Positions 7,801 to 24,077 of a stretch of 64,000 nt of DNA are shown here, one piece after another. The DNA is from an uncultured Candidatus Saccharibacteria bacterium (GTDB lineage: Bacteria > Patescibacteriota > Minisyncoccia > UBA6257 > 2-01-FULL-56-20), in assembly GCA_964467765.1 (NCBI GenBank), contig CAYXSS010000002.1:1310-65309 (forward strand), written 5' to 3'. The translations under genes were made by a program, and so were the position numbers. Numbering within the stretch: the stretch's first letter is position 1; every line of letters starts with the position of its first letter. Below the pieces are notes generated by a model that saw only the letters and a list, made by a program, of their open reading frames with translations, made no database searches and was not told the origin of the DNA.

Positions 7801-10800
7801 GCAGTTCGGCGGTCAGAGATTCGGAGAAATGGAAGTTTGGGCGCTCGAAGGATATGGGGCAAGGCATACATTGCAGGAAATGTTGACGATCAAGTCCGAC
7901 GATGTTTTGGGCCGCGCCGCTGCTTACGAATCGATAATCAGAGGGGAAGAAATTAAAGAGCCGAATTTGCCGGCATCGTTCAATGTGTTGGTCAACGAGC
8001 TCAAGTCACTTGGTTTTAACGTCAAACCGATTTATGCCGACGAAACAAGAAGGAAGGAAGATTTTTCCGCGCTGCAAATTACAGTCGCCTCTCCGGAAGA
8101 CATTTTGAAATGGTCGCATGGCGAAGTTATCAAACCAGAGACAATCAATTATCGAACCCAAAGACCGGAAAAGGACGGTCTTTTCTCGGAGCGTATTTTC
8201 GGTCCGACAAAAGATTATGAATGTTATTGCGGTAAATACAGACGTGTGCGTTATAAGGGCGTTGTTTGCGACAAGTGCGGCGTGGAGGTTACCAAGGCGT
8301 CCGTTCGGCGCGAAAGACTGGGGCATTTGGAGCTTGCCGCACCCGTTTCACATATTTGGTTTTTAAAGAGTGCGCCTTCCCGCTTGAGTTTATCTCTCGA
8401 CGTGTCTGCTCCAAAACTGGAACGCGTAATTTACTATTCCGCCTACATTGTTACCGAGGTTGACGAAGAAGAAAGAGAGAAAGCGCTAAAGGCTTTGGGC
8501 GGAGAACTAAAAAGCAGAATAAAAGAAAGCGGCAAAGGCAAAGGCGTTGAGAAAGAGCTTAAGGAAGCAGCCAAAGTTACCGAGGACTATCTTCAGGATT
8601 TGCGTCTTGGGCAAGTTCTTACAGAAACCGAATACTTTAATTTATCCAGACGTTTCGGCAGTGTTTTTCGCGCCGGAAGCGGAGCGGAAGCCGTCAGGAA
8701 AATTCTCGAGGGGATGGATCTGCGCAAGGAAATTCAAAAAATACAATCAGACCTCGACAAATCAAAAGACCCGCTTGCCCAAAGCAAACTCCTGCGGCGC
8801 CTCAAAATGTTTAAGTCTATGATCAAAAACCAAACGAGGCCGGAGTGGATGATCTTTAATGTTTTACCCGTTCTTCCTCCTGATCTTCGCCCGATGGTGG
8901 CGCTTGACGGCGGCAGGTATGCCACGTCCGACCTCAATGATCTATACCGGCGCGTTATTAACAGAAACAACCGTTTGAAAAAACTTTTGGACATAAAAGC
9001 GCCAGACGTCATTGTTCGCAACGAAAAAAGAATGTTGCAAGAGGCAGTAGACGCCCTAATCGACAATTCGGCAAGGTTTGGCTCGCAACAGCTTTCTTCG
9101 CAGCGCAGGCCGCTCCGATCTCTCGCTCACATGCTTAGAGGGAAACAGGGCCGCTTCAGACAAAATCTTCTCGGCAAGAGAGTGGATTACTCCGGCCGCT
9201 CCGTGATCGTCGTAGGTCCCAAATTAGGGATCGACGAATGCGGGCTGCCGAAGATTATGGCGCTCGAGCTTTTTCGGCCGTATGTCTTGAGCGAGATTAT
9301 CAAAAGAGGATTGGCTTACAACATTCGCGGCGCGGCGCGGTTTATCGAAGAGGGTAGCGACGAAGTCTGGGCAATTTTGGAAGACGTCATTCGCGACAAA
9401 ATGGTGCTCTTGAACCGCGCTCCGACACTGCACCGCTTAAGCGTGCAGGCTTTCAAGCCCCTGCTTACCGAAGGATTGGCGATTCAAATACCGCCGCTGG
9501 TTTGTGTCGCTTTCAATGCCGACTTTGACGGCGACCAAATGGCTGTGCACCTGCCTCTTTCGAATTACGCCCAGAAAGAGGCAAGAGAAATTATGTCTGC
9601 CGGCGGAAATATTTTGAAGCCGGCAACTGGCGAGCTTATAACTACGCCGACGCAAGACGTCGTTTTGGGAATTTATTATTTGACGCAGACGGACGAATCG
9701 AATGTGGAAAGAAACGAAAAAGGTTTGCCGAAAAAAGCGATCGGAGGAATCGAAGAAGCCCTGCTTGCGCATGAGTTCGGATTTATTGGTCTGCGCGAGC
9801 CTGTTTATTGGCAGAGTATGGAGACGACTCTCGGCCGCATGATTTTTAACGAAAATCTCCACGGCCTTCTTCCTTATCAAAACGAAGCTATAAACAAGAA
9901 AAAACTGGTAAAGATCGTAGAAAATATTTTTGACAAATATGGAAAAGAGGAAACAAGAAATATTTTGGATGCCGTAAAACTCTTGGGTTTCGAGATGGCA
10001 ACGCGTTCAGGAATTACATGGGCGATGGCCGACCTTATGGTTCCGAAAGGCAAACGCGCGCTGGTTGAGTCTTCAGAAAAACAAACCGCGGAAATTCAAG
10101 ATCAGTTTAACGAAGGGCTTTTGACTGCTGCCGAGCGGCGCGCCAGAGTGATAAGTGTTTGGGAAAAGGCAAAAGCCGATATTTCCAAACTGGTAGCCGA
10201 GGCTTTAGAAAAAAACAATCCCATTTACCAAATTGTTGATTCTGGTTCGCGCGGTTCTTGGTCCCAGCCGATCCAGATGATGGGTATGAGAGGTTTGGTG
10301 CAAAACCCCAAAGGAGAAATTATCGAATTGCCGATTAAATCATCTCTGAAAGAAGGTTTCAGTGTTTTGGAATATTTCATTTCCACGCACGGTGCGAGAA
10401 AAGGAACGACTGACACCGCTCTTAAAACCGCCCAAGCTGGATATCTGACGCGACGCTTAGTTGACGTATCACAGGATTTAATCATAAGAAGCGAAGACTG
10501 CCGCACAAAAGAAGGAGTAGAAATTTTCCGCAAGGACGGCAAGGAGTTCAACCAATCTTTCTCGAGCCGCCTCTTTTCGCGCACGTCGCTTGAGGATGTG
10601 AGGATACAGAGGAAAATCGTCGTGCGTGCCGGAGAAATTATAGACAAAATCGCAGCGGAGGCGATAGATCGTTCCAATATTGAATCAGCTAAGGTCAGGT
10701 CGCCAATCACCTGTAAGACGGCACACGGCATTTGTTCCAAATGCTACGGTTTCGACCTCGGCAGCAACAGTCCGGTGAAATTTGGCGTGGCCGTGGGCGT

Positions 10801-11656
10801 GCTTGCCGCTCAATCTATCGGTGAACCGGGAACGCAGCTTACAATGCGCACATTCCATGCCGGAGGCGTTGCCGGAGCTGATATTACGCATGGCTTGCCG
10901 CGCGTGGAAGAGCTTTTTGAAGTAAGACCGCCGCGAGGCAGGGCGATTCTTGCTCCTATGGACGGAATAGTAGAAAAAGTGGAAGACAAGGGCATGGCAA
11001 AACTTGTAAGAATATCACAGCCAGGATCAAAAAAGGCGCAAGAATTTTTGATTTCGCGCACAACACTGCTTTTCGTGGAAGTCGGAGCCAAAGTGCAGAA
11101 AGGCGATCAGATTTCTGAAGGACATGTCGATCTCAAGGAACTTTTAGCCATCAAAGGCAAAGAAGAGGTACAGCGCTACATCATCAACGAGGTGCAGAAA
11201 ATTTATTTATCGGAAGGCGCAACGATCAACAATAAACACATCGAGATAATCGTCAGACAGATGTTCTCTCGCGTGCGCGTAAGAGATGCCGGAGACTCCA
11301 CGGATTTTGTTGCCGGAGAAACCGTGGAAAAAGACAGTGTCCTCGAAGCCAACAGGGAACTTAAAAAACAGGGCCTGAAACCGGTCAAAGCAGACGAACT
11401 GCTTTTGGGAATAACGCGAGTCGCGCTTTCTTCCGACAGTTTCCTTTCCGCTGCTTCTTTCCAAGACACGGCGCGTGTTTTGGTTAAATCTGCAGTAGAA
11501 GGCAGAATAGACAGTCTGCGCGGCCTTAAGGAAAACGTGATCATCGGTCGCCTCATCCCGACAAAGGAATTGACAAAAGGTATACCGGAAGACGACGTTG
11601 ACGAAGCCGTAAAAGAGGAGCCGGTTGCCGCTGCTGGCGAACCAGAAGAAAATTAA
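4895..11656 (+). CDS. rpoBC: fused DNA-directed RNA polymerase beta-beta' subunit (RpoB-RpoC in one ORF)
   Basis: RpoB motifs ([37 protein letters not shown]) run straight into RpoC motifs ([39 protein letters not shown]). There is no stop at the junction near 8040. Confidence 0.95.
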
Positions 11657-12686: not shown

Positions 12687-12750
12687 TTCAAAATTTAAGA
12701 GTCAAAATGTAAAATTTTCATTTTGATATTTGTGGTTTAAATTTTTAAAC

Positions 12751-13176
12751 ATGGCCAAAAAAATCAAAACAATTTTAAAACTTCAACTTCCTGCCGGACA
12801 GGCCAATCCCGCGCCGCCCGTTGGCACCGCTTTGGGGCCGCACGGCGTAAACATTCAGGAATTCTGTAAACAATTCAACGACAAGACAAAGGATATGGCA
12901 GGCGATATCGTGCCGGCGGAAATCACGATTTTCGAAGACCGCAGTTTTAAGTTTGTCTTGAAGACCCCGCCCGCATCGGCGCTTTTGAAAAAAGCCGCAG
13001 GAATCGAAAAGGGCTCTGGCGACCCCCTAAAAACCAAAGTCGGTAAAGTTACCCGCGCCGATGTGCGCAAAATCGCCGAAAGAAAAATGCCGGATCTAAA
13101 TACCGACGATCTCGCCGCTGCCGAGCGCACCGTCATGGGCACGGCGAGAAATATGGGAATTGAGGTTATAGATTGA
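12751..13176 (+). CDS. rplK: 50S ribosomal protein L11
   Basis: [35 protein letters not shown] is a classic L11 N-terminus. The start was moved to the MAKK codon. Confidence 0.9.
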
Positions 13177-13414
13177 TAATCCTTGTGCATATTTCTGTGA
13201 AAAGGTCGGGAAACCGGAGTTTCCAGTGTCGGAAAACAGCGATCCGCCGACAGGCGGAGAGCACTAGAAACCCCTGCCTGCCGGCAGGGGTTTCTAGGGA
13301 GGGGCGACGAATAGTCGCTCCGACGTAATATGGGAATCAAGAAGTGGCGATGAGCAGTCGCTCCGACAGGCGGAACTGAAATTATAAATGAAACCCCTCT
13401 CTTTGAGAGGGGTT

Positions 13415-14047
13415 TCATTTATTTCTTAATATCGGTTCAATCGATTTTTTCACGTCCTGAAAAATCTTTTCTTCGTCCGGGGAAGCGTCAATAATGACCG
13501 TGGAATTTTTGAACCGCGGATGTTCGGCGACTTGCAGGTAGTTTTGTCTGATTTTTTCGAGCCAAGCTTCTTTCTCAAAAAATTCTTTTCTATCCCTGCC
13601 TTTTTCGATGCGCCGCAGCGCTTCTTTTGAGGGAATGTCGAAAATTATATTCAGATCAGGCCAGATAAGATGCGCTCCGATGATTTGCTCATGCATTTCC
13701 ATAATTTCTTCCGCTGAAATACCATCAAGCATGCCGTAAGCGACAGTGGAAAACGTGAAGCGTCCCATAAGGCAAATATTTCCGGCATCAAGCCGGGGTT
13801 TAATGGTGCTTACGATATCCTGTGCCCGATCGATGACGTAAAGTCGCTGGAATTCTTTTGCGTCCGCGATTTTCGGCATCTCGCCGCGCAGCATTTTCCT
13901 GATTGTTTGGCCTATTGGGGTATCGCTTGGCTCGCGTGAAAATTTTACATCAAAGCCAAGTTTTTGAAGCCAAGAAATTGTTCGCTCGGCCTGTGAGTCT
14001 TTGCCGCAGCCGTCGATCCCCTCGAGGGCGATGAGTTTGCCTTTCAT
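13415..14047 (-). CDS. tmk: thymidylate kinase
   Basis: A P-loop (LEGIDGCGKDSQ) and an overall dTMP-kinase profile. Confidence 0.85.
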   Translation of the reverse strand: MKGKLIALEGIDGCGKDSQAERTISWLQKLGFDVKFSREPSDTPIGQTIRKMLRGEMPKIADAKEFQRLYVIDRAQDIVSTIKPRLDAGNICLMGRFTFSTVAYGMLDGISAEEIMEMHEQIIGAHLIWPDLNIIFDIPSKEALRRIEKGRDRKEFFEKEAWLEKIRQNYLQVAEHPRFKNSTVIIDASPDEEKIFQDVKKSIEPILRNK

Positions 14048-14171
14048 TCCGCCTTTAATTTTATCAAAAATGAACTAAAACAATTATTATCGTTCGTTGT
14101 CTTTCTATAAAGCTGGGCAAAAGGTTTAAACAATCATTGACACCGTAAAGCCCCGGCGGTAAAATGTTGGT

Positions 14172-14597
14172 ATGAAATCCGTCGTCATTTGCGGTTCGCA
14201 AAGATATAAAGAAGGGATTGAGTCTTTCGCCGAAAAACTGCGCAAGCTCGGCTGCCCGATCGTTTTCGAGCCGAATTTCGTGCGCCAGCGGAAGAAAATG
14301 CTCCATAAAGAAGAAAGCCAAAGACTTAGAGTGAAATCGTACAGAGACCGCGTGCCGGCCATGGTCCACGAACACTTCGACAGGATCCGCAAAGCGGATG
14401 TCTGTTATGTCTACAACAAAGATGGTTATTTGGGCGTAAATACCACCCTCGAGCTTGGCTTTGCCCATGGCAAGAACATGGTGATTTACGCGCTTGAACC
14501 GGAGCGTTCGATTGAGGCGGGCGGTGAGATTTGCCGCGACATACTGTTTACGGAAATCATCGAAACGCCGGAGGAGTTGATAAAGAGGCTTACCTAA
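14172..14597 (+). CDS. DNPH1/Rcl-like 2'-deoxynucleoside 5'-phosphate N-hydrolase / nucleoside 2-deoxyribosyltransferase-fold protein (paralog 1)
   Basis: It has a VVICGSQRY N-terminus and a C-terminal LGVNTTLELGFAHGKNMV motif, which recall the Rcl/NDT family. It is paralogous to 16933..17391. Confidence 0.5.
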   Translation: MKSVVICGSQRYKEGIESFAEKLRKLGCPIVFEPNFVRQRKKMLHKEESQRLRVKSYRDRVPAMVHEHFDRIRKADVCYVYNKDGYLGVNTTLELGFAHGKNMVIYALEPERSIEAGGEICRDILFTEIIETPEELIKRLT

Positions 14598-14637
14598 TTT
14601 AAAATATTAGGCGGATAATTATAGGGTTGACATTGGA

Positions 14638-15054
14638 ATGTCAAAGGGCAAAAGCGTAGGCGCAATCATCAAAGACGAAAAAGGCGGATTTTTGGTTCAG
14701 TACAGGCTGAAGACTCCGCAAGGACTCGCCTTGCCCGCGGGGCACATTGAAGAAGGGGAGGATCCGGCAGAATGTCTTTTGCGGGAAGTTTTCGAAGAAA
14801 CAGGTCTTAAGGTTAAGAATTTCAAGCCGGTTATCGAAAATAAGTTTTATCCCAATTCTTGTCCGAAAAATCACGAAGGCCATGATTGGTGGGTTTACGA
14901 AGCAGAAGCAGAAGGCGATCTGGTCTTGCGCGAGCCCGACAAACACAAGTTCTTGAAATTTATGTCTTTGGATGAAATGAGGCGCTACGTCGAGCGGGGC
15001 GAAACTGATCCGGCTTGGTTTGAATACATTTTGCCAGAACTGGTCATTATCTGA
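14638..15054 (+). CDS. NUDIX hydrolase
   Basis: NUDIX box GHIEEGEDPAECLLREVFEETGL. Confidence 0.8.
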   Translation: MSKGKSVGAIIKDEKGGFLVQYRLKTPQGLALPAGHIEEGEDPAECLLREVFEETGLKVKNFKPVIENKFYPNSCPKNHEGHDWWVYEAEAEGDLVLREPDKHKFLKFMSLDEMRRYVERGETDPAWFEYILPELVII

Positions 15055-15153
15055 TCAATTGCCGGTGGATTTTCCGGCAAACGCCGCCTATGTTGCACGC
15101 GGCGTTTTTTTGTGATAAGAAGAAGTTAGAAATATTGCCATCAAAGCGAGGAA

Positions 15154-16287
15154 ATGGCAGTGAAACGGAAGAATGACACGAAGATAATCATTACAACCGG
15201 AATTCCCGGATGCGGCGAAAAAGATTTTTTTTTAAAGCTCGTCCATTATTGTGAGATGCGTGGCAAAAGCGTGAAAATCATCAATACAGGAGATCTGATG
15301 TTTGATAATTTCGCCGACCTTGGGCACAAGATGAGACACAAAACCATTCTTAGAGTTGAGCAGTGGCGTTTGCAGACCGACAGATCGGCCGTGCTTCGCG
15401 CCGCTCTGCAAGAGATTGTCGATAATAAGAACAAATACGACTTAGTCCTTGTCTGCATCCACGCCTGGTTCCTGTGGGATTATGTATATTTGGAGGCCTG
15501 CGATAGGTTTTTGAAAAAATTTTTAACCATGCCAGAGCTTGCGGCACTTGTGACATTTATCGACGACTACAGGCCGATCATAATGCGCCTTCGGGAGCGT
15601 GAGCAATGGCAGGATCAAAAATTGAATCCTGAAAAAATTCTTTCTTGGCAGAACGTTGAGGTTGGGACAACTCAGATTATCGCTGGACTTTTTGACGTTC
15701 AGTTCCAGGTTTTCGCCACCTCGCAGTCGCCGTCGGAATTTTATAAGATGGTTTTTCATCCGGAGATCGAGTCAGTTTACACAGGAATGCCGATTTCGCA
15801 TTTGCGTAAAGCGGACGATAGAGAACCGATTGACAGATTTATCAAGAAACTTTCGCGGTATTTCCGGATTGTAAATCCTTTAAGCGTTGAGGTTGTTGGA
15901 GCAGTTCATTTCGACAAGAAAGAGCCGGAAAAATATGGCCAGGCGGTGCATAGACACATTGTTCATCGCGATCTCTATTGGTTTTTACACCTTTGCGATT
16001 TTATGGTGGCTTATTGGCCCCAGGTCATAGTTCCGGAAGAGGTGCAAAAGGCTGCCAAACACTACCCGAATATTCTCAAAGAGTGGCCCAGGGCCATTTC
16101 ATCTCCGGGGCTTTCGAGCGAAATGCAGCAGGCGTGTGGCGAAGGAAAAGACGTTTTTACTGTTTTTCTAGGTTCGGAAGCGAGTCCATTTATTGTTCGC
16201 AATTCGACGCGCATCTTTTTGTCCGAAAAAAAATTTTTCTCATACCTGGACAAAAAATACCCCGGGCGGAAAGATCTCGTTTGGTAA
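15154..16287 (+). CDS. two-domain hypothetical protein, with an N-terminal atypical P-loop kinase-like region and a possible C-terminal NDT/SLOG-like region
   Basis: GIPGCGEKD fits GxxGxGK. The C-terminal half has VYTGMPIS and SPGLSSEMQQACGEGKDVFTVF motifs that recall the NDT fold. The match is weak. Confidence 0.4.
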   Translation: MAVKRKNDTKIIITTGIPGCGEKDFFLKLVHYCEMRGKSVKIINTGDLMFDNFADLGHKMRHKTILRVEQWRLQTDRSAVLRAALQEIVDNKNKYDLVLVCIHAWFLWDYVYLEACDRFLKKFLTMPELAALVTFIDDYRPIIMRLREREQWQDQKLNPEKILSWQNVEVGTTQIIAGLFDVQFQVFATSQSPSEFYKMVFHPEIESVYTGMPISHLRKADDREPIDRFIKKLSRYFRIVNPLSVEVVGAVHFDKKEPEKYGQAVHRHIVHRDLYWFLHLCDFMVAYWPQVIVPEEVQKAAKHYPNILKEWPRAISSPGLSSEMQQACGEGKDVFTVFLGSEASPFIVRNSTRIFLSEKKFFSYLDKKYPGRKDLVW

Positions 16288-16324
16288 AAAAACAAAGGCG
16301 CCTCTTATGAAGCGCCTTTTGATT

Positions 16325-16879
16325 TCATGGCAAGCGTACTTTTTTGAACTTATTGAGCACCGAAGTTACTACTTCATCCGGAGACATATCGGTTGTATCT
16401 ACGACAAAATGATAGTGCAACGGGTCGAGATGGTTTTCTATGCAGTAAAGATTTTTGTAGCGTTCTCGTTCCTCCTCTTCGCGCGCCGCGGCCAAGTTTA
16501 TTATTTCTCCAAGTGTTCGGTCGTTATATTCCGGACGAATTGAAGTTCGCATAGCCATCGTTTCAGGATTTACAGAAAGAAAGACATTAAAAACAGCAAA
16601 CGGGCTTTCTTTGGCGAAATACCAGGCTATGCGTCCTTGTACAACAACATTGTCATTTTCCCGCAGAAATTTTTTTTGCTCTTCGTCTACGGCGCGCTCA
16701 ACGGCCGGATTGTTTTTCAGGCGCGAATAGAACTCATCTATCGTCAACCCTTCTTTTTCCGCCATTTTTCTGAAAAGCTGTCCGACATTGAATTCTTTGT
16801 AGCCCAAAACCGAAGCCAACTTGCCAGCCACGTGGCTTTTTCCGGAGCCCACTTTTCCTCCAAGCGTGATTATTGCCAT
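16325..16879 (-). CDS. cytidylate kinase-like family P-loop kinase
   Basis: A Walker A motif (GGKVGSGKSHVAGKLA) and a length and profile that fit the cytidylate-kinase-like (Cytidylate_kin2) family. Confidence 0.65.
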   Translation of the reverse strand: MAIITLGGKVGSGKSHVAGKLASVLGYKEFNVGQLFRKMAEKEGLTIDEFYSRLKNNPAVERAVDEEQKKFLRENDNVVVQGRIAWYFAKESPFAVFNVFLSVNPETMAMRTSIRPEYNDRTLGEIINLAAAREEEERERYKNLYCIENHLDPLHYHFVVDTTDMSPDEVVTSVLNKFKKVRLP

Positions 16880-16932
16880 TGCTGTTGATAATTTGATTTG
16901 ATTATAAAACTAAACGGGGTATTATCAATGGA

Positions 16933-17391
16933 ATGAAGTCCGTGGTATTTTGTTCAAGCCAGCGGTTTAAGAAGGATATGGAAAAATTCATCGGTGAATT
17001 GCGTACCCTTGCTGCGGCAAAAGGTCTGCACCCCGTTGTTCTCGAGCCGAATTTCGGAGAAAAAGAAGAAAAGGTTGGTGTCCTGCACGAAAAAGATCGC
17101 TTAAACGATGCGGTTTATCGGGAAGCCGTTGCCGGAAAGGTCTACGACCACCTTTTCCGTAAAGTGCGCATTGCCGACGTTTGTTTTGTTTTCAACAAGG
17201 ATGGCTATCTAGGCGTCAATACAACTGGCGAACTCTTTGCCGCAGCCATGTCGGGTAAGATGTGTTATGCCTTGCACGACAAAACCCTGATGGGCAGCTA
17301 TCCGCACGATCTCTACGAGGAGCCGTCGGCGAGAAAACTTATCCACGAAGTCGTTTCCACTCCAGAAGAGCTTTTAAAGAGGCTTGCTTAA
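16933..17391 (+). CDS. DNPH1/Rcl-like / nucleoside 2-deoxyribosyltransferase-fold protein (paralog 2)
   Basis: It is homologous to 14172..14597 (MKSVVFCSSQRF...LGVNTTGELFAAAM). Confidence 0.5.
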   Translation: MKSVVFCSSQRFKKDMEKFIGELRTLAAAKGLHPVVLEPNFGEKEEKVGVLHEKDRLNDAVYREAVAGKVYDHLFRKVRIADVCFVFNKDGYLGVNTTGELFAAAMSGKMCYALHDKTLMGSYPHDLYEEPSARKLIHEVVSTPEELLKRLA

Positions 17392-17414
17392 AAATCTAAA
17401 CATCTTTTCGTTGC

Positions 17415-17446
17415 CCCGCCTAAGAGTGCGGGTTATAATTTTTTTA
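17415..17446 (+). terminator. rho-independent terminator
   Basis: A cccgc/gcggg stem followed by a long T-run (ttataattttttt). Confidence 0.5.
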
Positions 17447-17520
17447 CATGGACCATCAACCAACAATCGGGTTGGAAATACCCGCCTTCGCTAAAACTAC
17501 GGCGGGCAGGCACGCCTCAT

Positions 17521-18954
17521 ATGTCTAATTATCAACCCACGATAGGACTAGAAATCCACACAGAGTTGAAAACCAAAACAAAGATGTTTTGCGACTCTTT
17601 GAACGATCCGGAAGAAAAGCATCCGAACACTAATGTTTGTCCCGTTTGCCTCGGGCATCCGGGGACGCTGCCGACGATAAATAAAAAAGCGGTTGAGGAA
17701 GTGATAAAAGCGGGGCTGGTGCTCGGAGGCAAAATTAATCCCGTCGCGAAATTCGACCGCAAAAATTATTTTTATCCGGATTTGCCCAAGGGTTACCAAA
17801 TTTCGCAGTACGACCAGCCGCTTGTCTCGGGCGGAGGACTGAACGGCGTGCGCATCAAGAGGATTCATTTAGAAGAAGACACGGGAACGCTTGGACATGA
17901 AAGCGGTTCCTCGGCAAGCCTGGGACAACGAATTTCGCTTGTCGACTTCAACCGCGCCGGCGTTCCTCTTATGGAGCTTGTCACGGAGCCGGATCTCAAG
18001 TCCGCCGAAGAAGTTGTTTCTTTCGCTAAAGAATTGCAGCTCATCCTGCGCTACCTGAACGTGTCAGATGCCGACATGGAAAAAGGCCAGATGCGCATTG
18101 AGGCAAACGTGAGCTTAAATATGGGCACAAAAGTTGAACTGAAGAACATAAACTCTTTCAGGTTTGCCAAAGAGGCAATTGAATATGAGGTGGGACGGCA
18201 GATCAAAGCGCTTGAAAAAGGAGAGAAAATTCACCAGGAAACTCGCGGCTGGGATGAAAACAAAAAAAAGACGGTTAGCCAGCGCTCGAAAGAAGAAGCG
18301 CACGACTATCGCTATTTCCCAGAACCCGATCTGCCGCCTTTTGAAACGGGCGTTTTCGATTTGGAAAAATTGCGCGCAGAGCTGCCGGAACTTCCGCAGG
18401 CGAAAAGGGCAAGGCTTATGAGCGAATACGGTCTTCCTGAAAATCAGGCGGAGCTTATACGAAGCGATGCCGACCTTGCGAAATTTTTTGAAGAGTCGGC
18501 AAGCGAGTTTAAAGAATTGTCGGTTGCTGCCGATTGCGGATTGTTGGCGAATTACATCTTGAGCGACCTGCGTGGATTGATGAATGACTCCGGTATCGGA
18601 TTCGGCGAACTTAAATTTGGTCCGGAACACCTCGCTCATCTTCTCGCCTTGATTTCTCAAAAAAAGATTACAAGCCGAAAAGCCAAAGACTTACTCTCCA
18701 TCATGTTCCGCGACGGCCGCGATCCGGAAGAAATTCTCTCCGTGGAAGGATTCGAGGCGATATCAGACGAAACAAAAATTTCCGAAATTGTAAAAGTAAT
18801 TTTGGAAGAAAATCCGGCGGCGGTCGCCGATTACAAAAAAGGAAAATCGCAAGCCGTTCAGTTTTTAACCGGCAAGACTATGGCGAAACTCCGCGGTGCC
18901 GGAGACCCACAGGTTATCCAAAAAGTCATATCTAAACTCCTCGGACAATCTTAA
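17521..18954 (+). CDS. gatB: Asp-tRNA(Asn)/Glu-tRNA(Gln) amidotransferase subunit B
   Basis: The GatB N-terminus (PTIGLEIHTELKTKTKMFC, CPVCLGHPGTLP) and the C-terminal GatB/YqeY domain. Confidence 0.9.
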   Translation: MSNYQPTIGLEIHTELKTKTKMFCDSLNDPEEKHPNTNVCPVCLGHPGTLPTINKKAVEEVIKAGLVLGGKINPVAKFDRKNYFYPDLPKGYQISQYDQPLVSGGGLNGVRIKRIHLEEDTGTLGHESGSSASLGQRISLVDFNRAGVPLMELVTEPDLKSAEEVVSFAKELQLILRYLNVSDADMEKGQMRIEANVSLNMGTKVELKNINSFRFAKEAIEYEVGRQIKALEKGEKIHQETRGWDENKKKTVSQRSKEEAHDYRYFPEPDLPPFETGVFDLEKLRAELPELPQAKRARLMSEYGLPENQAELIRSDADLAKFFEESASEFKELSVAADCGLLANYILSDLRGLMNDSGIGFGELKFGPEHLAHLLALISQKKITSRKAKDLLSIMFRDGRDPEEILSVEGFEAISDETKISEIVKVILEENPAAVADYKKGKSQAVQFLTGKTMAKLRGAGDPQVIQKVISKLLGQS

Positions 18955-19060
18955 GCGGTTGCCAAAATTGTTGATTTTTTGCGGCTAATGCGGTTGTTGA
19001 CTCTAGCCAGCCGTGTTTTATTATTCTTATAGAAACTTGTTATGCGTTTTGGAGGATTGT

Positions 19061-21118
19061 ATGAGCGAGACGAAAGGGTTCGATCTCGAAAAGGTTATCA
19101 GCGAAGACGCGGAAAGGAAGATAAGAAAACAGAAAACACACAAGGAAATAACGTTTAAAGACTACCTTGCGCTTCTGAAAAACGATCCAAAAATCGCCCA
19201 AAATTCTCCGGCCAGGCTTCTCGAGAAAATCTTGAATTTCGGCAAAGAGCCGGTTCCTGAATCGGAGCAATGGTTTGCGGACGACAACGGTTCGCCGATA
19301 GACATTCGCTACGCCGCTTTTTCCAAGAAGCTTTTCGGGTTGGATAAGCCGATTTATCAGGCAGTGAATTTCTTAAAGGCTGGCGCCAATCGTTTAGAAA
19401 CGGGGAACCAAATTCTTCTTTTGGTCGGTCCTACTGCTGGCGGCAAATCGACGTTCGCAAGAATGTTGAAACAGCTTCTTGAGGATTATTCCCTGCGCCA
19501 GGTTTTCGCCATTAAAGGTTGTCCGATGCACGAAGAGCCTTTGCATATTCTGCCGCGTTACCTGAGAAGTGACTTTGAGCGCGACCTGAAAGTTAGGATA
19601 GACGGCGATCTTTGCCCGCACTGTCGCCACATACTGGATGAAAAATATACCATCAAAGAAGGCGAAGAAAAAGGCAAGGTGCGCTGGTGGGACGTGCCCG
19701 TAGAGACCTTCACTTTTTCCATACAAGGCGCTCGCGGCATTGGATCTTTTGAGCCGTCTGATGAGAAATCCCAGGACGTTACCGAGCTTGTCGGCCGCGA
19801 AAACATTTCGATAAGTTCCACAAAAGGCCCGGATCATCCTCTGGCCTGGTCTCTTTCCGGAGAATTGGAAAAAGCCAACAGAGGAATATGTGAAGGACGC
19901 GAACTTATAAAAGCGGACGAAAAGCTCCTATGGGTATTTATCAGCGTTGCCCAAGAAAAAGAGGTCAAATTGCAAGGGTCCAGCTTCCCGCATCTTTCTG
20001 TCGATACGATTGTTATCGGCCACACGAACCTTACCGAATACAATAAATTTTCTTCGCGCCAGGAAAACGAAGCTTTGCATGATCGCATGTACGTTGTGCA
20101 GTTCCCGTATCCGCTGCGCATGAGCGACGAAGTAAAGATCTACAAAAAGCTTATTGAAGAAGAAAGCGATTTTGTGCATCTCTCGAAGTGCCACATCGCT
20201 CCCGGTTCGCTTGAGCTTGCAGCCCTATTTGCCGTGCTCACGCGGCTTTTGCCTCGGTCTAAGGGCGAAGTGGATATTTTAACTAAAGCAAAGATCTACA
20301 ACGGAGACAGGTTGCTCTTGGAATTCCGCGACAAAGACAAGAAACCGATCGACATCAGGACTCTTGTCGAGGAGGGCCAGGAATCGCCGGATGTTAGCAA
20401 GCGCGAAGGTATGTTTGGCGCAAGCTCGCGCGACATTTTGGCGGCCATCAACATGGAACTTGTGAAAAAAGGCGACGGCTGTCTCACCCCGCTTTCCGTG
20501 ACTCGCGCGTTGCGCGACGTCTTCGAGCATCGCATGGGTTATACGCCGGAAGAGCAGGCGCGCTTCAGAGAAATAATCCAGGAAAGTGTTATGGCGGAGT
20601 ACAAAGAATTTGTTATCGAGTCCGTAAACAAAGCTTTTCTTAGGGCTTATGACGATCTGGCTCGCGAGCTATTTGCGAGATACATTGAGGCAGTCGAGCT
20701 CCACCGCAATCAGAGAAGAAAACTGGTGCGCGGAGGTTTCAAGGTCGAACGCGACGATATTACCCAGAAGCCGAAAGAGCCGGATTTGAAGCTCATGCGC
20801 TCCATCGAAGAACATATCCCGGTCGGTGAATCGGAGGCGGATACCTTCCGCGGCGAAATCTTGGAATACAAATCCCAGATGAAGAGTTTCAATTACGACA
20901 CTTATCAGCCGCTGGCCCGCGCAGTTGAGAAAAAGCTTTTGGCGGACAACAAAACCAGTCTTGGCCTGGTGCTTTCTCAAGACAAGCCAAAGGGCGAAGA
21001 GGAAAAGAAGCGAGCCGACGATCTCTTCGGCGCGCTAACCGACCCCAACGGCGCGCGTTTCTGCCCGGTTTGCGCCAAAGAAGTTGTTGAAAAAGCGAGA
21101 GAATTCCTTAACGCATAA
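19061..21118 (+). CDS. prkA: PrkA-family serine protein kinase (AAA+ plus kinase-like)
   Basis: A Walker A motif (LLLVGPTAGGKSTFARML) and the length of a PrkA/YeaG family member. The start was moved to MSETKG because a GGAGG SD precedes it. Confidence 0.8.
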   Translation: MSETKGFDLEKVISEDAERKIRKQKTHKEITFKDYLALLKNDPKIAQNSPARLLEKILNFGKEPVPESEQWFADDNGSPIDIRYAAFSKKLFGLDKPIYQAVNFLKAGANRLETGNQILLLVGPTAGGKSTFARMLKQLLEDYSLRQVFAIKGCPMHEEPLHILPRYLRSDFERDLKVRIDGDLCPHCRHILDEKYTIKEGEEKGKVRWWDVPVETFTFSIQGARGIGSFEPSDEKSQDVTELVGRENISISSTKGPDHPLAWSLSGELEKANRGICEGRELIKADEKLLWVFISVAQEKEVKLQGSSFPHLSVDTIVIGHTNLTEYNKFSSRQENEALHDRMYVVQFPYPLRMSDEVKIYKKLIEEESDFVHLSKCHIAPGSLELAALFAVLTRLLPRSKGEVDILTKAKIYNGDRLLLEFRDKDKKPIDIRTLVEEGQESPDVSKREGMFGASSRDILAAINMELVKKGDGCLTPLSVTRALRDVFEHRMGYTPEEQARFREIIQESVMAEYKEFVIESVNKAFLRAYDDLARELFARYIEAVELHRNQRRKLVRGGFKVERDDITQKPKEPDLKLMRSIEEHIPVGESEADTFRGEILEYKSQMKSFNYDTYQPLARAVEKKLLADNKTSLGLVLSQDKPKGEEEKKRADDLFGALTDPNGARFCPVCAKEVVEKAREFLNA

Positions 21119-21210
21119 AATTCTTATTGGCAGCCGACGTCATTTTGACGCCGGTTTTTTTTATTGCTAAAATAAAACCAGCGCTTTGGATCTTTAATAA
21201 GGAGATGCAA

Positions 21211-22566
21211 ATGCCGATTGTACAGACTGAACCGACCTCCTATAAGGGAACTGGCGACGCCAAACGGCATCGCGACAAACAAAGAGAAGCTCTGAAGAAA
21301 AAACTTCCGGAAATCATTTCCGAGGAAGCGATTATTACCAAAAAGAAATCGGGAATCGTGAAGGTTCCCATAAAAATGATCGATATTCCTCACTTCCGTC
21401 CGCGGCGCGATTGTCGGGGCGCTGGCGGCGGTCAAGGCCCTTACCAACCAGGCGATATTTTGAAAAGAAAGCCTGGTCAAGGCAACAAGCCTGGCGAAGC
21501 CGGACAAGAGCCCGGCGTAGACTATATTGAAACGGAAATTTCCATAGAGGAATTGATAGAAATGATGCTCGAAGATATCGGTTTGCCGCGGCTCACGGAG
21601 AAAACGCAGAAATCCATACTGGTGGAACTTGGATATCGCGTAGCCGGTCGCCAAAAATCCGGACCATGGCCGCTTCTAGACAAAAAAGCAACCGTGAAAG
21701 AGGGAATAAAAAGATTTTGGTTTTGCCTGCGGGCGGTTCAGACGGAGGCCGACTCCGACGAGCTTGCGGCCTTCGCCGCGCTCAAAGAAACGAACGGCGA
21801 CGTTCAAGCCGCCATAGAATTTTTACGAAGCGGCAAAACTCTTAAACCGTTCGAAAAAATAGAACCATTCCCGATTTTTGCGGCCGACGACATGCGCTTC
21901 CATAAAATTAAAGAAAATATGGAGGAAAGGTCGCGGGCGGTGGTAATAGCAATGATGGATGTTTCCGCATCGATGACTGATGTAAAAAAATATTATGCCC
22001 GCTCGACTATTTTTTGGCTGGTCAGCTTCCTAAGAACCATTTACAAGCAGGTTGAAATCAGGTTTATCGTGCATCATGCTACGGCCAGGATTGTTGACGA
22101 AGAAGAATTTTTCAAGGTCGGCGAGAGCGGCGGGACGCTGTGCCACAGTGCCTACGAACTTGCCGAGAGCTTGATTAAATCTGAATATCCGACGGAAGGC
22201 TGGAACGTTTATGTTTGGCATTTTTCCGACGGCGAAGATTTTAATGCCGATGAGACTTGTAAAGCGGCTGCGAAGTTGATTGATTTGGGAATTAATATGC
22301 TTGGTTATGGCGAGATAAATCCGGAAGAGGAGTGGGGCGTGATGACAGCGGCACTGCCGAACTTTAAGGGGCTTGCCGAATCAGTTCTTTGGAAATACTT
22401 GCGCAGCCATTTTTCTCTGCGCGAATCCAAAGATAGCAACGAAGTCAAACTTATGACCAAAGACAACCTGCCGTTTCTTGCGGTATTTATTTCCGCGCGC
22501 AAGCACATATTTTTGGCGCTTAAGGAATTTCTTCGCAAGGATCGGTGGAAGGAGGTGACACGATGA
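21211..22566 (+). CDS. yeaH: YeaH/YhbH-like DUF444 (vWA-like) protein
   Basis: It lies between prkA and spoVR. A vWA-like MIDAS region is present (VVIAMMDVSASM). The start is the ATG at 21211, 6 nt after AAGGAG. Confidence 0.7.
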   Translation: MPIVQTEPTSYKGTGDAKRHRDKQREALKKKLPEIISEEAIITKKKSGIVKVPIKMIDIPHFRPRRDCRGAGGGQGPYQPGDILKRKPGQGNKPGEAGQEPGVDYIETEISIEELIEMMLEDIGLPRLTEKTQKSILVELGYRVAGRQKSGPWPLLDKKATVKEGIKRFWFCLRAVQTEADSDELAAFAALKETNGDVQAAIEFLRSGKTLKPFEKIEPFPIFAADDMRFHKIKENMEERSRAVVIAMMDVSASMTDVKKYYARSTIFWLVSFLRTIYKQVEIRFIVHHATARIVDEEEFFKVGESGGTLCHSAYELAESLIKSEYPTEGWNVYVWHFSDGEDFNADETCKAAAKLIDLGINMLGYGEINPEEEWGVMTAALPNFKGLAESVLWKYLRSHFSLRESKDSNEVKLMTKDNLPFLAVFISARKHIFLALKEFLRKDRWKEVTR

Positions 22567-24077
22567 AAAAAACAGACATCGCCCGTTTGTCCAAAATAGA
22601 AGACCGCATACGCCGTATTGCCGAGGATAACGGCCTTCTGACCACAGACATCCTTTTTGAGGTCGTTCCGGCAAGGAAAATGCTTGAATCCATGGCCTAC
22701 ATGTTTCCGACGAATTTTTCCCATTGGTCTTTCGGCAGGGATTACGAAAAATATAGGACGATTTACGAATATACCGGATCGGGAATTCCCTACGAACAAG
22801 TTTGGAATTTCGATAAGCCGCGCGCTTTGATTGTCGAAACAAACCCCGTTGCTCTCAACATCATGGTCATCGCGCATGTTTTCGGGCACGTAGATTTTTT
22901 CTTGGCAAACGGTTTTTTACGCCGTGGCAGGGAAGTTGCCGATATTGCCGAAGAGGCGAGAAATGCGGCAAATCGCTTTGCCGCCTACGAAGAACGATTC
23001 GGCAAACAGGATGTGGAGCGGGTTATGGATGCCGCCATGTCGATCATGTGGCACGAAAACCCCGATCCGTTTTTCGATGAACCTGAAGAAGAAGAATTAC
23101 GCGAGCGCCTAATAGAGATCGAGAGGGCGAAGCTGGAACGGACCCGCAGTCTCAAGTCCGAATTCAGCAAGCCCGAAAGTAGAGAAGAAACAGCGGCCAT
23201 CGAAGAAAAGCTTGCGGAGCTTATGAAAAAGACTCCACCGGAGCCGACACACGACCTTTTGCTTTATATTTCGCGCCGATCGCCTAAACCATTGAAGCCT
23301 TGGATGGCGGATGTTATAAGCGTGATTCGCCGCCAAGCGAGAGCTTTGTCTCCCAACAGGCGCACGAAGATGCTTAATGAGGGCTGGGCCACATATTGGC
23401 ACGTAAAAATCATGCGGCAGCTTTTTCAGGAAGGACTTTTGACGGCGGAAGAGCACGGCGTTTTTAACGAGTTTCACTCCGCAGTTACGCGGCAAAATAG
23501 AATGTCTCTTAACTGGTACGGAGTGGGATTGGCTCTTTTGAACGAGATAGAGGACAGATGGAACAAGGGGCGCTTTGGCGGGGATTATGAAAAATGCAAC
23601 GATGCCTACAAACTGGCCGATTGGGATACGGGCGCAATGTTGGGCAAGAAAAAACTTTTCGAAATAAGGTCCGCGTATAGCGACAGAATGGCCGTAGAGG
23701 AATTTTTCACCGACGAATTTATCCGCGACCAAGAACTTTACCTTTATACCGAAAGCGTGAATCCTCAAGACGGTTCCGTGGAATACGTCGTCGACGAAGA
23801 CGATCCGGAAATAATCAGGCGCAGACTGAAATCGCTTTTCACCCTTTACGGAACGCCGTTGATTACGGTTGAGGACGGAGATTGTGACGGAGCAAAAGAG
23901 TTGTACCTTAAACACCGTTTTTCCGGCTATGAGCTGGATCCGCACTACAGAAACGGCACATTGCGTAAAATTTATGATCTATGGGGCAAACCCGTGCATC
24001 TTGAAGCAGCACACGATGGAAAACTGAAACTATTCACTTTTGATGGCAAGGGCTTCAGCGAATCCATCATGCTCTAA
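22563..24077 (+). CDS. spoVR: SpoVR/YcgB family protein
   Basis: SpoVR motifs (AYMFPTNFSHWSFGRDYE, MVIAHVFGHVDFF). The start overlaps the yeaH stop as ATGA. Confidence 0.85.
   Translation: MKKTDIARLSKIEDRIRRIAEDNGLLTTDILFEVVPARKMLESMAYMFPTNFSHWSFGRDYEKYRTIYEYTGSGIPYEQVWNFDKPRALIVETNPVALNIMVIAHVFGHVDFFLANGFLRRGREVADIAEEARNAANRFAAYEERFGKQDVERVMDAAMSIMWHENPDPFFDEPEEEELRERLIEIERAKLERTRSLKSEFSKPESREETAAIEEKLAELMKKTPPEPTHDLLLYISRRSPKPLKPWMADVISVIRRQARALSPNRRTKMLNEGWATYWHVKIMRQLFQEGLLTAEEHGVFNEFHSAVTRQNRMSLNWYGVGLALLNEIEDRWNKGRFGGDYEKCNDAYKLADWDTGAMLGKKKLFEIRSAYSDRMAVEEFFTDEFIRDQELYLYTESVNPQDGSVEYVVDEDDPEIIRRRLKSLFTLYGTPLITVEDGDCDGAKELYLKHRFSGYELDPHYRNGTLRKIYDLWGKPVHLEAAHDGKLKLFTFDGKGFSESIML

Follow-up and report, generated by a model that had tools for sequence, protein, structure and literature searches.

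Two paralogs of the NDT/DNPH1 superfamily in a conserved nucleotide gene cluster between rplK and gatB of a CPR bacterium

What might two small, unannotated paralogs do in a cluster of nucleotide-related genes that sits between rplK and gatB? We addressed this question in a 64,000-nucleotide stretch of contig CAYXSS010000002.1 (hereafter the window) from a small-genome bacterium of the CPR (Parcubacteria), for which a first-pass annotation, made from the sequence alone, had claimed a six-gene cluster at 13415-17391. All six ORFs are present: tmk, NDT_A (141 aa), a NUDIX gene, a 377-aa gene, a cytidylate-kinase-like (cmk-like) gene and NDT_B (152 aa) (Table 1). The annotation had also placed tmk immediately upstream of the NDT genes; this holds for its position but not for its strand, as both tmk and the cmk-like gene lie on the opposite (-) strand. 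The -10 element of the promoter match upstream of NDT_A ends 6 nt 5' of the NDT_A start codon.

Table 1. Features of the cluster and its borders (window coordinates).
Feature	Position	Strand	Basis or remark
rplK (ribosomal protein L11)	12730..13176	+	left border of cluster, conserved
Hairpin, 18-bp stem, between convergent rplK and tmk	13384..13422	.	terminator-like on both strands
tmk, dTMP kinase, 210 aa	13415..14047	-	PF02223 and TIGR00041
Sigma-70-like promoter match, TTGACA-17-TAAAAT	14137..14165	+	11/12, consensus match only
NDT_A, 141 aa, NDT/DNPH1 superfamily	14172..14597	+	AF2 model, fold matches, family profile, hhalign, residue conservation
NUDIX hydrolase, 138 aa	14638..15054	+	PF00293, canonical Nudix box
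377-aa two-domain gene	15154-16287	+	N-terminal P-loop domain and C-terminal domain
377-aa protein, N-terminal domain, archaeal-adenylate-kinase-like	15154..15723	+	family profile vs PDB
377-aa protein, C-terminal domain, probable NDT-like	15739..16287	+	hhalign, PF05014 matches, invariant residues
GC-rich hairpin between convergent 377-aa and cmk-like genes	16294..16319	.	terminator-like
Cytidylate-kinase-like P-loop kinase, 184 aa	16325..16879	-	PF13189, TIGR02173, canonical GSGKS motif
NDT_B, 152 aa, NDT_A paralog	16933..17391	+	43% identity to NDT_A
gatB	17521..18954	+	right border of cluster, conserved

NDT_A and NDT_B belong to the NDT/DNPH1 superfamily

Pfam and NCBIfam bore out the earlier assignments of the NUDIX, tmk and cmk-like genes. 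The tmk product matches PF02223 (Thymidylate_kin; 1.1e-35) and TIGR00041 (136.8 bits, above the cut-off of 83), while the cmk-like product matches PF13189 (Cytidylate_kin2; 2.1e-17) and TIGR02173, the archaeal-type (d)CMP kinase profile, at 3.3e-27 and 95.6 bits, slightly below the cut-off of 102.1. The NUDIX protein (PF00293, 3.7e-22) carries the canonical Nudix box GHIEEGEDPAECLLREVFEETGL. Its best PDB match is the MutT/NUDIX protein 3smd (3.7e-10), and its matches span ADP-ribose hydrolases, Ap4A hydrolases and MutT-type enzymes, with ADP-ribose pyrophosphatases at about 3e-5.

NDT_A and NDT_B are 43% identical over their full length (BLASTP, E 1e-35), which confirms the proposed paralogy. 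Both begin with MKSVV(I/F)C(G/S)SQR(Y/F), as had been noticed, and have NKDGYLGVNTT(L/G)EL in common; the DGYLGVNTT motif, described earlier as C-terminal, is instead internal (residues 84-94 of 141).

The Nuc_deoxyrib_tr Pfam matches of the two proteins fall below threshold (E 0.12 and 0.2; 13 and 12.2 bits, gathering threshold 28.8), and family profiles together with a structure model were required to assign the fold. The profile search retrieved 706 representative clusters at E<=1e-3, and PF05014 is matched by 43 of 57 diverse family members (best 3.3e-11). Against the PDB, the best match of the family profile is the NDT 6evs (3.4e-5), with the nucleophile Glu aligned. The AF2 model of NDT_A (pLDDT 94.3) was compared with solved structures using Foldseek; the best PDB matches were the NDTs 7o62 and 7m5h, YtoQ, human DNPH1 and BcmB (E 1e-5 to 1e-4), and MilB was also among the fold matches. 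By structure, the nearest solved proteins are transferases that act on nucleosides rather than hydrolases of nucleotides. For YtoQ, a PF11071-type NDT-like protein (8OF6), the fold match had no significant sequence-profile counterpart in the NDT_A/B family in these searches. Among the viral fold matches were a 412-aa Klosneuvirus protein that bears the name 'Nudix hydrolase' and, from the Gordonia phages Ghobes and Archimedes, the DmtZ-DutZ fusions.

In line with the Rcl/DNPH1-NDT fold suggested earlier, NDT_A and NDT_B are best read as an ancient pair of paralogs within the N-(deoxy)ribosyltransferase / deoxyribohydrolase superfamily (Pfam clan CL0498, PF05014-like). In the searches made here, their subfamily was found mainly in Parcubacteria (CPR).

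Both proteins are very highly conserved, at about the level of ribosomal protein L11. It is worth noting that this exceeds what would be expected of a simple house-cleaning enzyme, and so runs counter to such a role.

The NDT-NUDIX pairing is conserved at a housekeeping locus

Gene order was compared at 44 species-level loci drawn from many Parcubacteria lineages and proved strongly conserved: in these relatives the cluster is placed between rplK and gatB, with L11 homologs upstream in 22 of 44 loci and GatB homologs downstream in 22 of 44. At one of them (L004), the syntenic left gene carries Pfam Ribosomal_L11 and the syntenic right gene GatB_N and GatB_Yqey. A NUDIX gene lies no more than 300 bp from an NDT-like gene in 32 of the 44 loci (29 of the 36 with enough flank), and the B-type orthogroup occurs in 34/44, usually as the last gene ahead of gatB. 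Tmk was found in 21/44 related loci, and the enzymes within the cluster in relatives include dCMP deaminase, Tmk, ThyX and a dNMP kinase (phrog_139, 1e-20). The first-pass annotation had tied its reading to family membership and a conserved neighbourhood; the genes are indeed not scattered in relatives, nor do the two proteins fall in an unrelated family.

Could these small genes have been kept together by chance, their adjacency meaning nothing for function? Synteny around ribosomal genes is a trait of the compact CPR genomes, and two members of the cluster are only occasional, the cmk-like gene being present in just 2/44 related loci, plus L001, and the 377-aa gene in 6/44. However, the NDT-like/NUDIX pairing recurs in distant members and other contexts, where a relative adjoins NUDIX, ITPase and YfbR-HD genes (L054) or overlaps a NUDIX gene (L056). 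It is mirrored by domain fusions of distant relatives with MazG (P0244) and with NTPase_I-T (P0301). It also survives a non-orthologous swap, as in L015 the NUDIX slot is taken by an ITPase-type NTPase_I-T protein (PF01931, 3.3e-32). We consider chance adjacency extremely unlikely.

The enzyme set also resembles phage modules that combine an NTP pyrophosphatase, an NDT-fold dNMP transferase, dNMP kinases, a ThyX-type synthase and dCMP deaminase, as with DmtZ/DutZ in Z-genome phages (PMC12884076). DmtZ has the NDT fold, hydrolyses dAMP and also passes deoxyribose 5-phosphate on to a base; its gene adjoins, or is fused to, that of the dATP pyrophosphatase DutZ (PMC12884076). DmtZ shows that natural NDT-fold enzymes can move deoxyribose 5-phosphate to another base. 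The likeness to the NDT/NUDIX pair lies in coupling a pyrophosphatase to an NDT-fold enzyme that acts on the resulting dNMP. There are also differences: DmtZ retains the Tyr/Asn/Glu triad, DutZ has a dUTPase rather than a NUDIX fold, and the phage enzymes serve base replacement, whereas the genes described here occupy a cellular housekeeping locus.

By analogy, the cluster could make or handle a non-canonical DNA base, as in phage hypermodification or base replacement, with the pyrophosphatase depleting a canonical dNTP and the NDT-fold enzymes placing deoxyribose 5-phosphate on the unusual base. The ThyX, deaminase and phrog_139 dNMP kinase genes of relatives fit this scheme, but ordinary dTTP synthesis accounts for Tmk, ThyX and dCMP deaminase. 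In the loci examined, we saw neither a base-synthesis gene (PurZ-like, hydroxymethylase, glycosyl- or aminotransferase) nor a dedicated polymerase, and a PHROG search returned no family matching NDT_A, NDT_B or the 377-aa fusion protein. The fixed rplK...gatB position in many Parcubacteria lineages makes the modified-nucleotide alternative raised earlier less likely, and overall we judge it improbable.

The putative active site combines an NDT/DNPH1-type Glu with a DNPH1-like phosphate loop

Gly88 and Glu94 (NDT_A numbering) are invariant in 57/57 family members, and Glu94 occupies the NDT/DNPH1 nucleophile position, the place of the catalytic acid that the first-pass annotation had proposed to look for. 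The putative site of NDT_A comprises this Glu, the phosphate-loop-like C7-G8-S9-Q10-R11 and His68, with Q10, E48, R51, Y57, N82, Y86 and N90 as further invariant residues. In NDT_B, the counterparts of conserved NDT_A residues are C7, S9, Q10, H73, N88, Y92, N96 and E100. Judging by these residues, both paralogs look catalytically intact.

Similarity of the family to human DNPH1/Rcl, the 2'-deoxynucleoside 5'-phosphate N-hydrolase and 5hmdUMP sanitiser, is detectable by profile-to-sequence comparison only (hhalign, E 2.8e-4, probability 41%). In this alignment C7-G8-S9-Q10-R11 corresponds to C26-G27-S28-I29-R30, Arg lid included, G88 to G100, and E94 to the nucleophile E104. DNPH1 binds the 5'-phosphate through backbone NH groups of I29, R30, G31 and G100, with R30 also forming a lid that shuts over the substrate (PMC10483697). 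In contrast, two of the three classical triad residues are missing from NDT_A: the Tyr24 equivalent is Val5, and the Asp80 equivalent is a gap adjoining His68. The chemistry of NDT_A/B could therefore differ. The NDT_A/B proteins also have extra invariant residues and occur as two paralogs per genome, and the NDT_A loop before the catalytic Glu is two residues longer than in DNPH1, which makes the Ser98/Gly100 equivalences uncertain.

MilB and BcmB, the CMP and hydroxymethyl-CMP N-glycosidases, likewise use a Glu nucleophile on nucleotide substrates, and according to Zhao et al. 2014 an Arg near the N-terminal loop reportedly controls substrate entry in enzymes of this type. They belong to antibiotic biosynthesis clusters, and at the Tyr position, where NDT_A/B have Val, they have a Phe thought to set ribo specificity (PMC7308715).

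These residues bear on whether NDT_A/B are classical nucleoside 2'-deoxyribosyltransferases that swap the bases of free deoxynucleosides, as in lactobacilli, with the locus kinases phosphorylating the products. The Pfam family matched by relatives is Nuc_deoxyrib_tr, several kinase genes lie close by, and the catalytic Glu motif T/S-x-x-E-L/I-G-x-A is common to NDT_A/B and the NDTs (PF05014; 7O62, 6EVS, 1F8X, 1S2D). However, the equivalent of NDT Tyr7 is Val, and Asp72 has no equivalent, with His instead. NDTs carry a G-x-F/W-F type N-terminal loop, whereas the C-G-S-x-R loop found here is of the DNPH1 phosphate-binding type. Moreover, the locus kinases are NMP kinases (Tmk, Cmk, dNMP kinase) and not clear deoxynucleoside kinases, the sole dNK match in the locus survey having an E of 0.02, and the close NTP-pyrophosphatase link suggests monophosphate substrates. 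On balance, we regard base exchange on free deoxynucleosides as unlikely.

We also considered that NDT_A/B sense or process NAD+/ADP-ribose-type ligands, or are non-catalytic, TIR/SLOG-like regulators, in which case the NUDIX protein would be an ADP-ribose pyrophosphatase, as its PDB matches allow. The TIR/DrHyd/SLOG clade includes both NAD/ADPr processors and non-catalytic sensors (PMC9503650), one of the 57 relatives weakly matches ThsB_TIR and TIR_2, and the very high conservation of NDT_A/B would fit many interaction constraints. Against this, an invariant Glu stands exactly at the NDT/DNPH1 nucleophile position, sequence profiles match NDT families rather than TIR or LOG, the MazG and ITPase domains of the fusion proteins use NTPs as substrates, and the context is housekeeping dNMP metabolism rather than defence islands. 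A ligand-sensing role thus seems quite unlikely.

The 377-aa protein probably carries a third NDT-like domain

The atypical P-loop reported in the 377-aa protein was correctly assigned: its N-terminal domain is AAA_17 / archaeal adenylate-kinase-like, with GIPGCGEKD as a non-canonical Walker A. The family profile matches the adenylate kinases 6ln3 (2e-8) and 1nks (1.7e-7) in the PDB. Among 28 family members, the canonical Walker A lysine position holds R in 17, E in 8, K in 2 and D in 1. As the lysine is missing in 26/28, this 'kinase' domain may have no kinase activity at all; possibly it is a degenerate nucleotide-binding domain with a regulatory role.

The suggestion that the C-terminus is NDT-like can be upheld tentatively. 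It aligns with the NDT_A/B family in hhalign (E 3.9e-4, probability 36%) with the Glu matched, PF05014 is found at about 1e-3 in 2/29 family members, and an invariant SPG...E323 motif is present. By sequence comparison, this is probably a third NDT-like domain.

A model for NDT_A and NDT_B

The tight link to NTP pyrophosphatases and the alignment with the DNPH1 phosphate loop both favour monophosphate substrates for NDT_A/B. With intermediate confidence, we propose that both are (d)NMP N-glycosidases or phospho(deoxy)ribosyl transferases acting downstream of an NTP pyrophosphatase in a pyrimidine deoxynucleotide locus; we infer their function, substrate level, chemistry, sugar and base specificity, and physiological role. 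The adjacent pyrophosphatase, a NUDIX protein in this cluster but of ITPase type in one relative, would supply the monophosphate. The C-G-S-Q-R loop would hold it, while the invariant Glu (E94 in A, E100 in B) would attack C1' of the (deoxy)nucleoside 5'-monophosphate, releasing the base and leaving a covalent phospho(deoxy)ribosyl-enzyme. This intermediate could be hydrolysed to (deoxy)ribose 5-phosphate or transferred to another base. The 377-aa protein would add its probable NDT-like domain and its degenerate adenylate-kinase-like one.

The pathway logic is similar to that of the human 5hmdC-DCTD-DNPH1 route, where DNPH1 is fed by the action of an NTP pyrophosphatase and of dCMP deaminase. 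The host, like other CPR bacteria, presumably lacks de novo nucleotide synthesis. Since the rplK-gatB housekeeping locus gathers pyrimidine deoxynucleotide enzymes (Tmk and the Cmk-like kinase here; dCMP deaminase, ThyX and dNMP kinase in relatives), the module would clean or rebalance a scavenged nucleotide pool.

Organization of the cluster

All six ORFs that the first-pass annotation had placed at 13415-17391 were recovered there by reading the ORFs, between rplK and gatB. Close homologs are named after Candidatus Sungbacteria and other Parcubacteria, which assigns the window to a CPR bacterium. The annotated functions of the genes accompanying the NDT paralogs also held. Tmk scored 136.8 bits against TIGR00041, exceeding the equivalog cut-off of 83.25. 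The NUDIX protein carries the canonical Nudix box (GX5EX7REUXEEXGU), which reads GHIEEGEDPAECLLREVFEETGL in the ORF, and matched PF00293 at 79 bits (cut-off 21); its nearest solved relatives were mixed, comprising MutT-type, ADP-ribose and Ap4A hydrolases. The 184-aa kinase is cytidylate-kinase-like, with a canonical Walker A motif, GGKVGSGKS (pattern GxxGxGK[ST]), and 95.6 bits against the archaeal-type (d)CMP kinase TIGR02173, below the equivalog cut-off of 102.1.

Coordinates of the cluster, of other features in the window, and of genes in related loci (prefix L)
Feature	Location	Strand	Remarks
rpoB-rpoC ORF	4895-11656	+	2253 aa
rplK	12730-13176		flank of cluster
Hairpin	13384-13422		pattern match only
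tmk	13415-14047	-	TIGR00041 equivalog cut-off passed
Promoter-like site	14137-14165		consensus scan, pattern match only
NDT_A	14172-14597	+	141 aa
NUDIX gene	14638-15054	+	PF00293, 3.7e-22
377-aa gene	15154-16287	+	AdkA-like N-terminal half, NDT-like (probable) C-terminal half
Hairpin	16294-16319		pattern match only
Cytidylate-kinase-like gene	16325-16879	-	184 aa, close to TIGR02173
NDT_B	16933-17391	+	152 aa
gatB	17521-18954		flank of cluster
PrkA, DUF444, SpoVR trio	19013-24077	+	directly 3' of gatB
miaA	24074-25078	-	IPPT, 5.6e-80
P-loop-kinase-like gene	25357-26112	-	251 aa
TatD-family DNase gene	26183-27001	+	
DUF6899 gene	L001:4611-5300		5' of NDT_A
GIY-YIG nuclease gene	L001:5613-5996		5' of NDT_A
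NTPase_I-T gene	L015:8472-9008		PF01931, 3.3e-32
~250-aa NDT-like protein	L013:9299-10057		
~250-aa NDT-like protein	L010:9811-10551		
~250-aa NDT-like protein	L015:9115-9885		
~250-aa NDT-like protein	L019:9126-9887		
~250-aa NDT-like protein	L026:8947-9720		

Consensus scans point to four transcription units: tmk; NDT_A with the NUDIX and 377-aa genes; the cmk-like gene; and NDT_B, the last possibly running on into gatB. A promoter-like site precedes the NDT_A unit, and each of the two hairpins lies between convergent genes. The -10 element (TAAAAT) of the best promoter-like site ends 6 nt before the NDT_A ATG, which leaves no space for a Shine-Dalgarno sequence; thus, the NDT_A mRNA may be leaderless. 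An Rfam scan of 13000-17800 gave nothing near any gathering score, and therefore no known riboswitch or leader. Two minus-strand ORFs lying over NDT_A (14064-14468 and 14126-14392) are probably not genes; the conserved homologs belong to the plus-strand ORF.

Elsewhere in the window, a single ORF encodes the complete set of RpoB (Rpb2) domains and, after it, that of RpoC (Rpb1), and is an rpoB-rpoC gene fusion. The PrkA (AAA_PrkA plus PrkA), DUF444 (YeaH-like) and SpoVR trio is a stress- or sporulation-associated module within a reduced CPR genome. The genes for MiaA (tRNA isopentenyltransferase) and a TatD-family DNase, the latter of possible relevance to nucleotide scavenging, surround a gene for a 251-aa P-loop-kinase-like protein, itself about 8 kb from the cluster. 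This kinase-like protein is homologous (3e-12) to a 193-aa protein that matches the phage dNMP kinase phrog_139 (1e-20) and whose gene lies within the NDT/NUDIX cluster of five related loci (L001, L011, L012, L027 and L028).

NDT_A and NDT_B adopt the nucleoside deoxyribosyltransferase fold

NDT_A and NDT_B (hereafter A and B) share 43% identity from end to end (E 1e-35). Taken singly, the window copies reached PF05014 (Nuc_deoxyrib_tr) only below threshold (E 0.12 and 0.2; 13 and 12.2 bits against a cut-off of 28.8), and neither was recognized at a significant level by NCBIfam, PHROGs or Pfam. A single-sequence search of NDT_A against the PDB, as well as a shallow 12-sequence profile, returned noise only (KDO8P synthase, Fab chains). 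Searching 1.8 billion cluster representatives with a profile recovered 706 relatives at E<=1e-3. PF05014 was matched by 43 of 57 diverse homologs at E<=0.01 (best 3.3e-11) and PF15891 by 13 of them, and the family profile found the NDTs 6evs (3.4e-5) and 4hx9 (0.007) and the CMP N-glycosidase BcmB (0.03) in the PDB, with the nucleophile Glu aligned. AlphaFold gave a confident model of NDT_A with the 57 diverse homologs (pLDDT 94.3, pTM 0.88), against a pLDDT of 45 with 12 close sequences. Foldseek matched this model to NDTs (7o62, 7m5h), YtoQ, human DNPH1 and BcmB, at E values of 1e-5 to 1e-4. Both paralogs have the flavodoxin-like alpha/beta fold with a parallel sheet that characterizes the NDT superfamily (Pfam CL0498). 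The profile matches, the model and the Foldseek hits agree that the NDT/DNPH1 fold first proposed for them was correct.

One metagenomic relative, P0169 (478 aa), carries an NDT_A-type domain at residues 339-478 (E 6e-56) after a domain of the NeuB, or sialic-acid-synthase, family; this arrangement could be a true fusion or a gene-calling artefact.

The predicted active site keeps the nucleophile and departs from the classical triad

Classical NDTs (L. leichmannii numbering) use a Tyr7, Asp72, Glu98 triad, and Asp92 and Asn123 contact the 5'-OH. The homodimeric DNPH1 converts a dNMP into the base and deoxyribose 5-phosphate; its Tyr24 is hydrogen-bonded to the nucleophile Glu, and Asp80 is the general acid/base. 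In A and B the Glu alone is kept. Gly88 and Glu94 of NDT_A are invariant in all 57 diverse family sequences; E94 falls on the nucleophile of 6evs, 4hx9 and DNPH1 (E104), in the helix after the fourth strand as elsewhere in the superfamily, and E100 is conserved in the B orthogroup.

The other two triad residues are missing. When the A/B family was aligned by hhalign with human DNPH1 (E 2.8e-4, probability 41%), whose sequence was confirmed against the PDB, Tyr24 fell on Val5, a position occupied by V, I, T or C in the family, and Asp80 fell on a gap. His68 adjoins this gap, and its position is at least 95% conserved in each of the two orthogroups. In the alignment with 4hx9, Asp72 is an insertion beside the family His. 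Whether the Tyr position holds Tyr or Phe is considered to govern the choice between deoxy and ribo sugars (PMC7308715). As Val fits neither rule, the sugar specificity of A and B is not readable from sequence.

In contrast, the phosphate-binding region of DNPH1 has counterparts. In the DNPH1-dUMP complex, the backbone NH groups of I29, R30, G31 and G100, together with Ser98 and Ser128' of the partner subunit, hold the 5'-phosphate, while Arg30 shuts over the substrate as a lid (PMC10483697). By alignment, the loop G27-S28-I29-R30-G31, the Arg30 lid and Gly100 find equivalents in the family: C26-G27-S28-I29-R30 corresponds to C7-G8-S9-Q10-R11 of NDT_A and G100 to G88, whereas Ser98 faces Tyr86 in a loop whose length differs by two residues. 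These aligned residues make the CPR proteins look more like nucleotide-binding than nucleoside-binding members of the superfamily. That A and B are classical nucleoside transferases, with which they share the fold and the nucleophile, is a reading we consider unlikely.

Q10, E48, R51, Y57, N82, Y86 and N90 are likewise conserved in the A and B orthogroups. This common set suggests that both paralogs are catalytically intact and form a distinct variant of the family. NAD/ADPr-type activity, or a non-catalytic TIR/SLOG-like role, appears rather doubtful for a pair that keeps the nucleophile in this way.

A, NUDIX and B form a conserved core

We scored 44 loci, from one genome per GTDB species, with the proteins of the window. 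The loci came from the Sung-, Giovannoni-, Yanofsky-, Wolfe-, Kaiser-, Azam-, Harrison-, Niyogi- and Nealson-bacteria, among other lineages. In this sample, which was recovered by motif patterns from the closer alignment of A and B and is thus biased towards well-conserved homologs, a NUDIX gene lay within 300 bp of an NDT-like gene in 32 of the 44 loci (29 of the 36 with enough flank). A and B occurred together in 21 loci, L11 and GatB in 22 each, Tmk in 21 and dCMP deaminase in 11; the kinase-NDT fusion (6), ThyX (4) and the Cmk-like gene (2) were rarer. From these counts, the core is A, NUDIX and B flanked by rplK and gatB, and the slot from NUDIX to B is variable. The expected conservation of the neighbourhood across relatives was thus borne out, and it is hardly credible that the adjacency is meaningless.

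The complete Sungiibacteriota genome CP066690 has, in order, dCMP-deaminase-like, dNMP-kinase-like, Tmk, ThyX, DUF6899, GIY-YIG, A, NUDIX, a 127-aa gene, Cmk-like (minus strand) and B. A Liptonbacteria contig reads L11, dCMP deaminase, Tmk, kinase-NDT fusion, NUDIX, B and GatB. In the complete Sungiibacteriota genome (L001), the DUF6899 gene and the small GIY-YIG nuclease gene are inserted just 5' of NDT_A; DUF6899 homologs hold the same position upstream of NDT_A in 4 of the 44 loci. Five related loci encode, between NUDIX and NDT_B, a conserved protein of about 250 aa that has no Pfam match and is NDT-like by hhalign against the A/B family (probability 83%, E 8.4e-6), with the invariant motifs GSIQN, GDYGRRWR and VSGGSAxE.

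NTP pyrophosphatases recur beside this domain

In locus L015 no NUDIX gene was detected, and the usual NUDIX slot after NDT_A holds an NTPase_I-T (ITPase-type) gene, a non-orthologous replacement. Two distant family members are fused to pyrophosphatases: P0244 to MazG, under the source name 'non-canonical NTP hydrolase', and P0301 to NTPase_I-T. A 130-aa relative (L054) lies within a run of NTPase_1, ITPase, NUDIX and YfbR-like HD genes, and another (L056) overlaps a NUDIX gene.

Proteins of the Gordonia phages Ghobes and Archimedes were among the viral fold matches, as was a 412-aa protein of Klosneuvirus under the name 'Nudix hydrolase'. Those of the Gordonia phages are DmtZ-DutZ fusions, characterized in 2026; DmtZ, of the NDT fold, hydrolyses dAMP and also moves deoxyribose 5-phosphate onto 2-aminoadenine, and its partner is a dATP pyrophosphatase (PMC12884076). 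Taken together, adjacency and fusion show four unrelated NTP-pyrophosphatase folds recurring with this kind of domain, and the common denominator of these partners is a nucleoside monophosphate product. That our cluster, a pyrimidine-deoxynucleotide locus, is a non-canonical-base pathway strikes us as improbable.

The 377-aa protein joins two unusual halves

The 377-aa protein, or kinase-NDT fusion, belongs to a small family: 45 homologs were found, with named sources in CPR or unclassified bacteria and one Thermoprotei archaeon. In its N-terminal half it is a homolog of archaeal adenylate kinases (family profile versus 6ln3, 2e-8). Despite this homology most of the family lacks the canonical Walker A lysine, and the window protein has the atypical P-loop already reported, GIPGCGEKD. 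In 28 members the lysine position is R in 17, E in 8, K in 2 and D in 1, and the following residue is never S or T. The nucleotide-binding domain of this half is degenerate, or non-canonical at the least.

The C-terminal half, with an invariant SPG...E motif, is probably a third NDT-like domain. Its proposed NDT likeness gained support from hhalign against the A/B family (E 3.9e-4, probability 36%, Glu matched) and from PF05014 matches in 2 of 29 family members at about 1e-3. A sequence profile of this half found no match in the PDB.

Constraint on A and B

Measured against the window copies, median identity across the related loci was 76% for NDT_A, 67% for NDT_B, 68% for L11, 57% for GatB, 35% for NUDIX and 29% for Tmk, and B exceeded GatB in 16 of 17 paired loci. 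Even in a sample biased towards conserved copies, A and B stand far apart from the NUDIX and Tmk genes next to them. In the loci examined, A and B are conserved about as strongly as ribosomal protein L11. Such constraint is unusual for a house-cleaning enzyme, and is our main reason to allow for a more central role, for instance in an essential base-exchange step or as an A/B heteromer that is obligate.

A model for the cluster and its meaning

De novo nucleotide synthesis is generally reported to be absent from CPR/Patescibacteria, and their route to a clean, balanced dNTP pool is poorly understood. Our model assumes that the host, like other CPR bacteria, lives on scavenged nucleotides. The pyrophosphatase would turn some (d)NTP into monophosphate, the invariant Glu of A and/or B would attack C1', and the base would then be released or exchanged; we hold this sequence of steps to be the likeliest reading, at about even odds. 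The purpose might be sanitation, the role of DNPH1; rebalancing of the pool through base exchange like that of DmtZ; or breakdown to ribose 5-phosphate or deoxyribose 5-phosphate.

Both the superfamily and the chemistry it performs are already well known. The A/B subfamily stands out as a conserved paralogous pair that deviates in two of three triad residues. Where sources name its members they do so as 'hypothetical protein', bar one UniRef label beginning 'MazG', and the searchable literature nowhere mentions the subfamily together with CPR or Patescibacteria, the search having yielded only an unrelated study on viruses of Nanohaloarchaeota. The replacement of Tyr and Asp by Val and His could interest NDT-based nucleoside and nucleotide biocatalysis.

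Should A and B prove to be dNMP N-glycosidases or base-exchange enzymes, bacteria would have in them a counterpart of the human DNPH1 sanitising route or of the phage DmtZ base swap, and the pair would make small, soluble, easy-to-test targets. We also raise a bolder, speculative version, which is probably not the case: A and B would be a natural phosphodeoxyribosyltransferase, possibly heteromeric, that exchanges bases directly on dNMPs, is fed or regulated by NUDIX and the kinase-NDT fusion, and is effectively essential. Were it true, a base exchange that is central and effectively essential would account for conservation as strong as that of a ribosomal protein, and Parcubacteria could turn the deoxynucleotides that they scavenge from foreign DNA into the four required, without nucleoside kinases, and discard damaged or modified ones.
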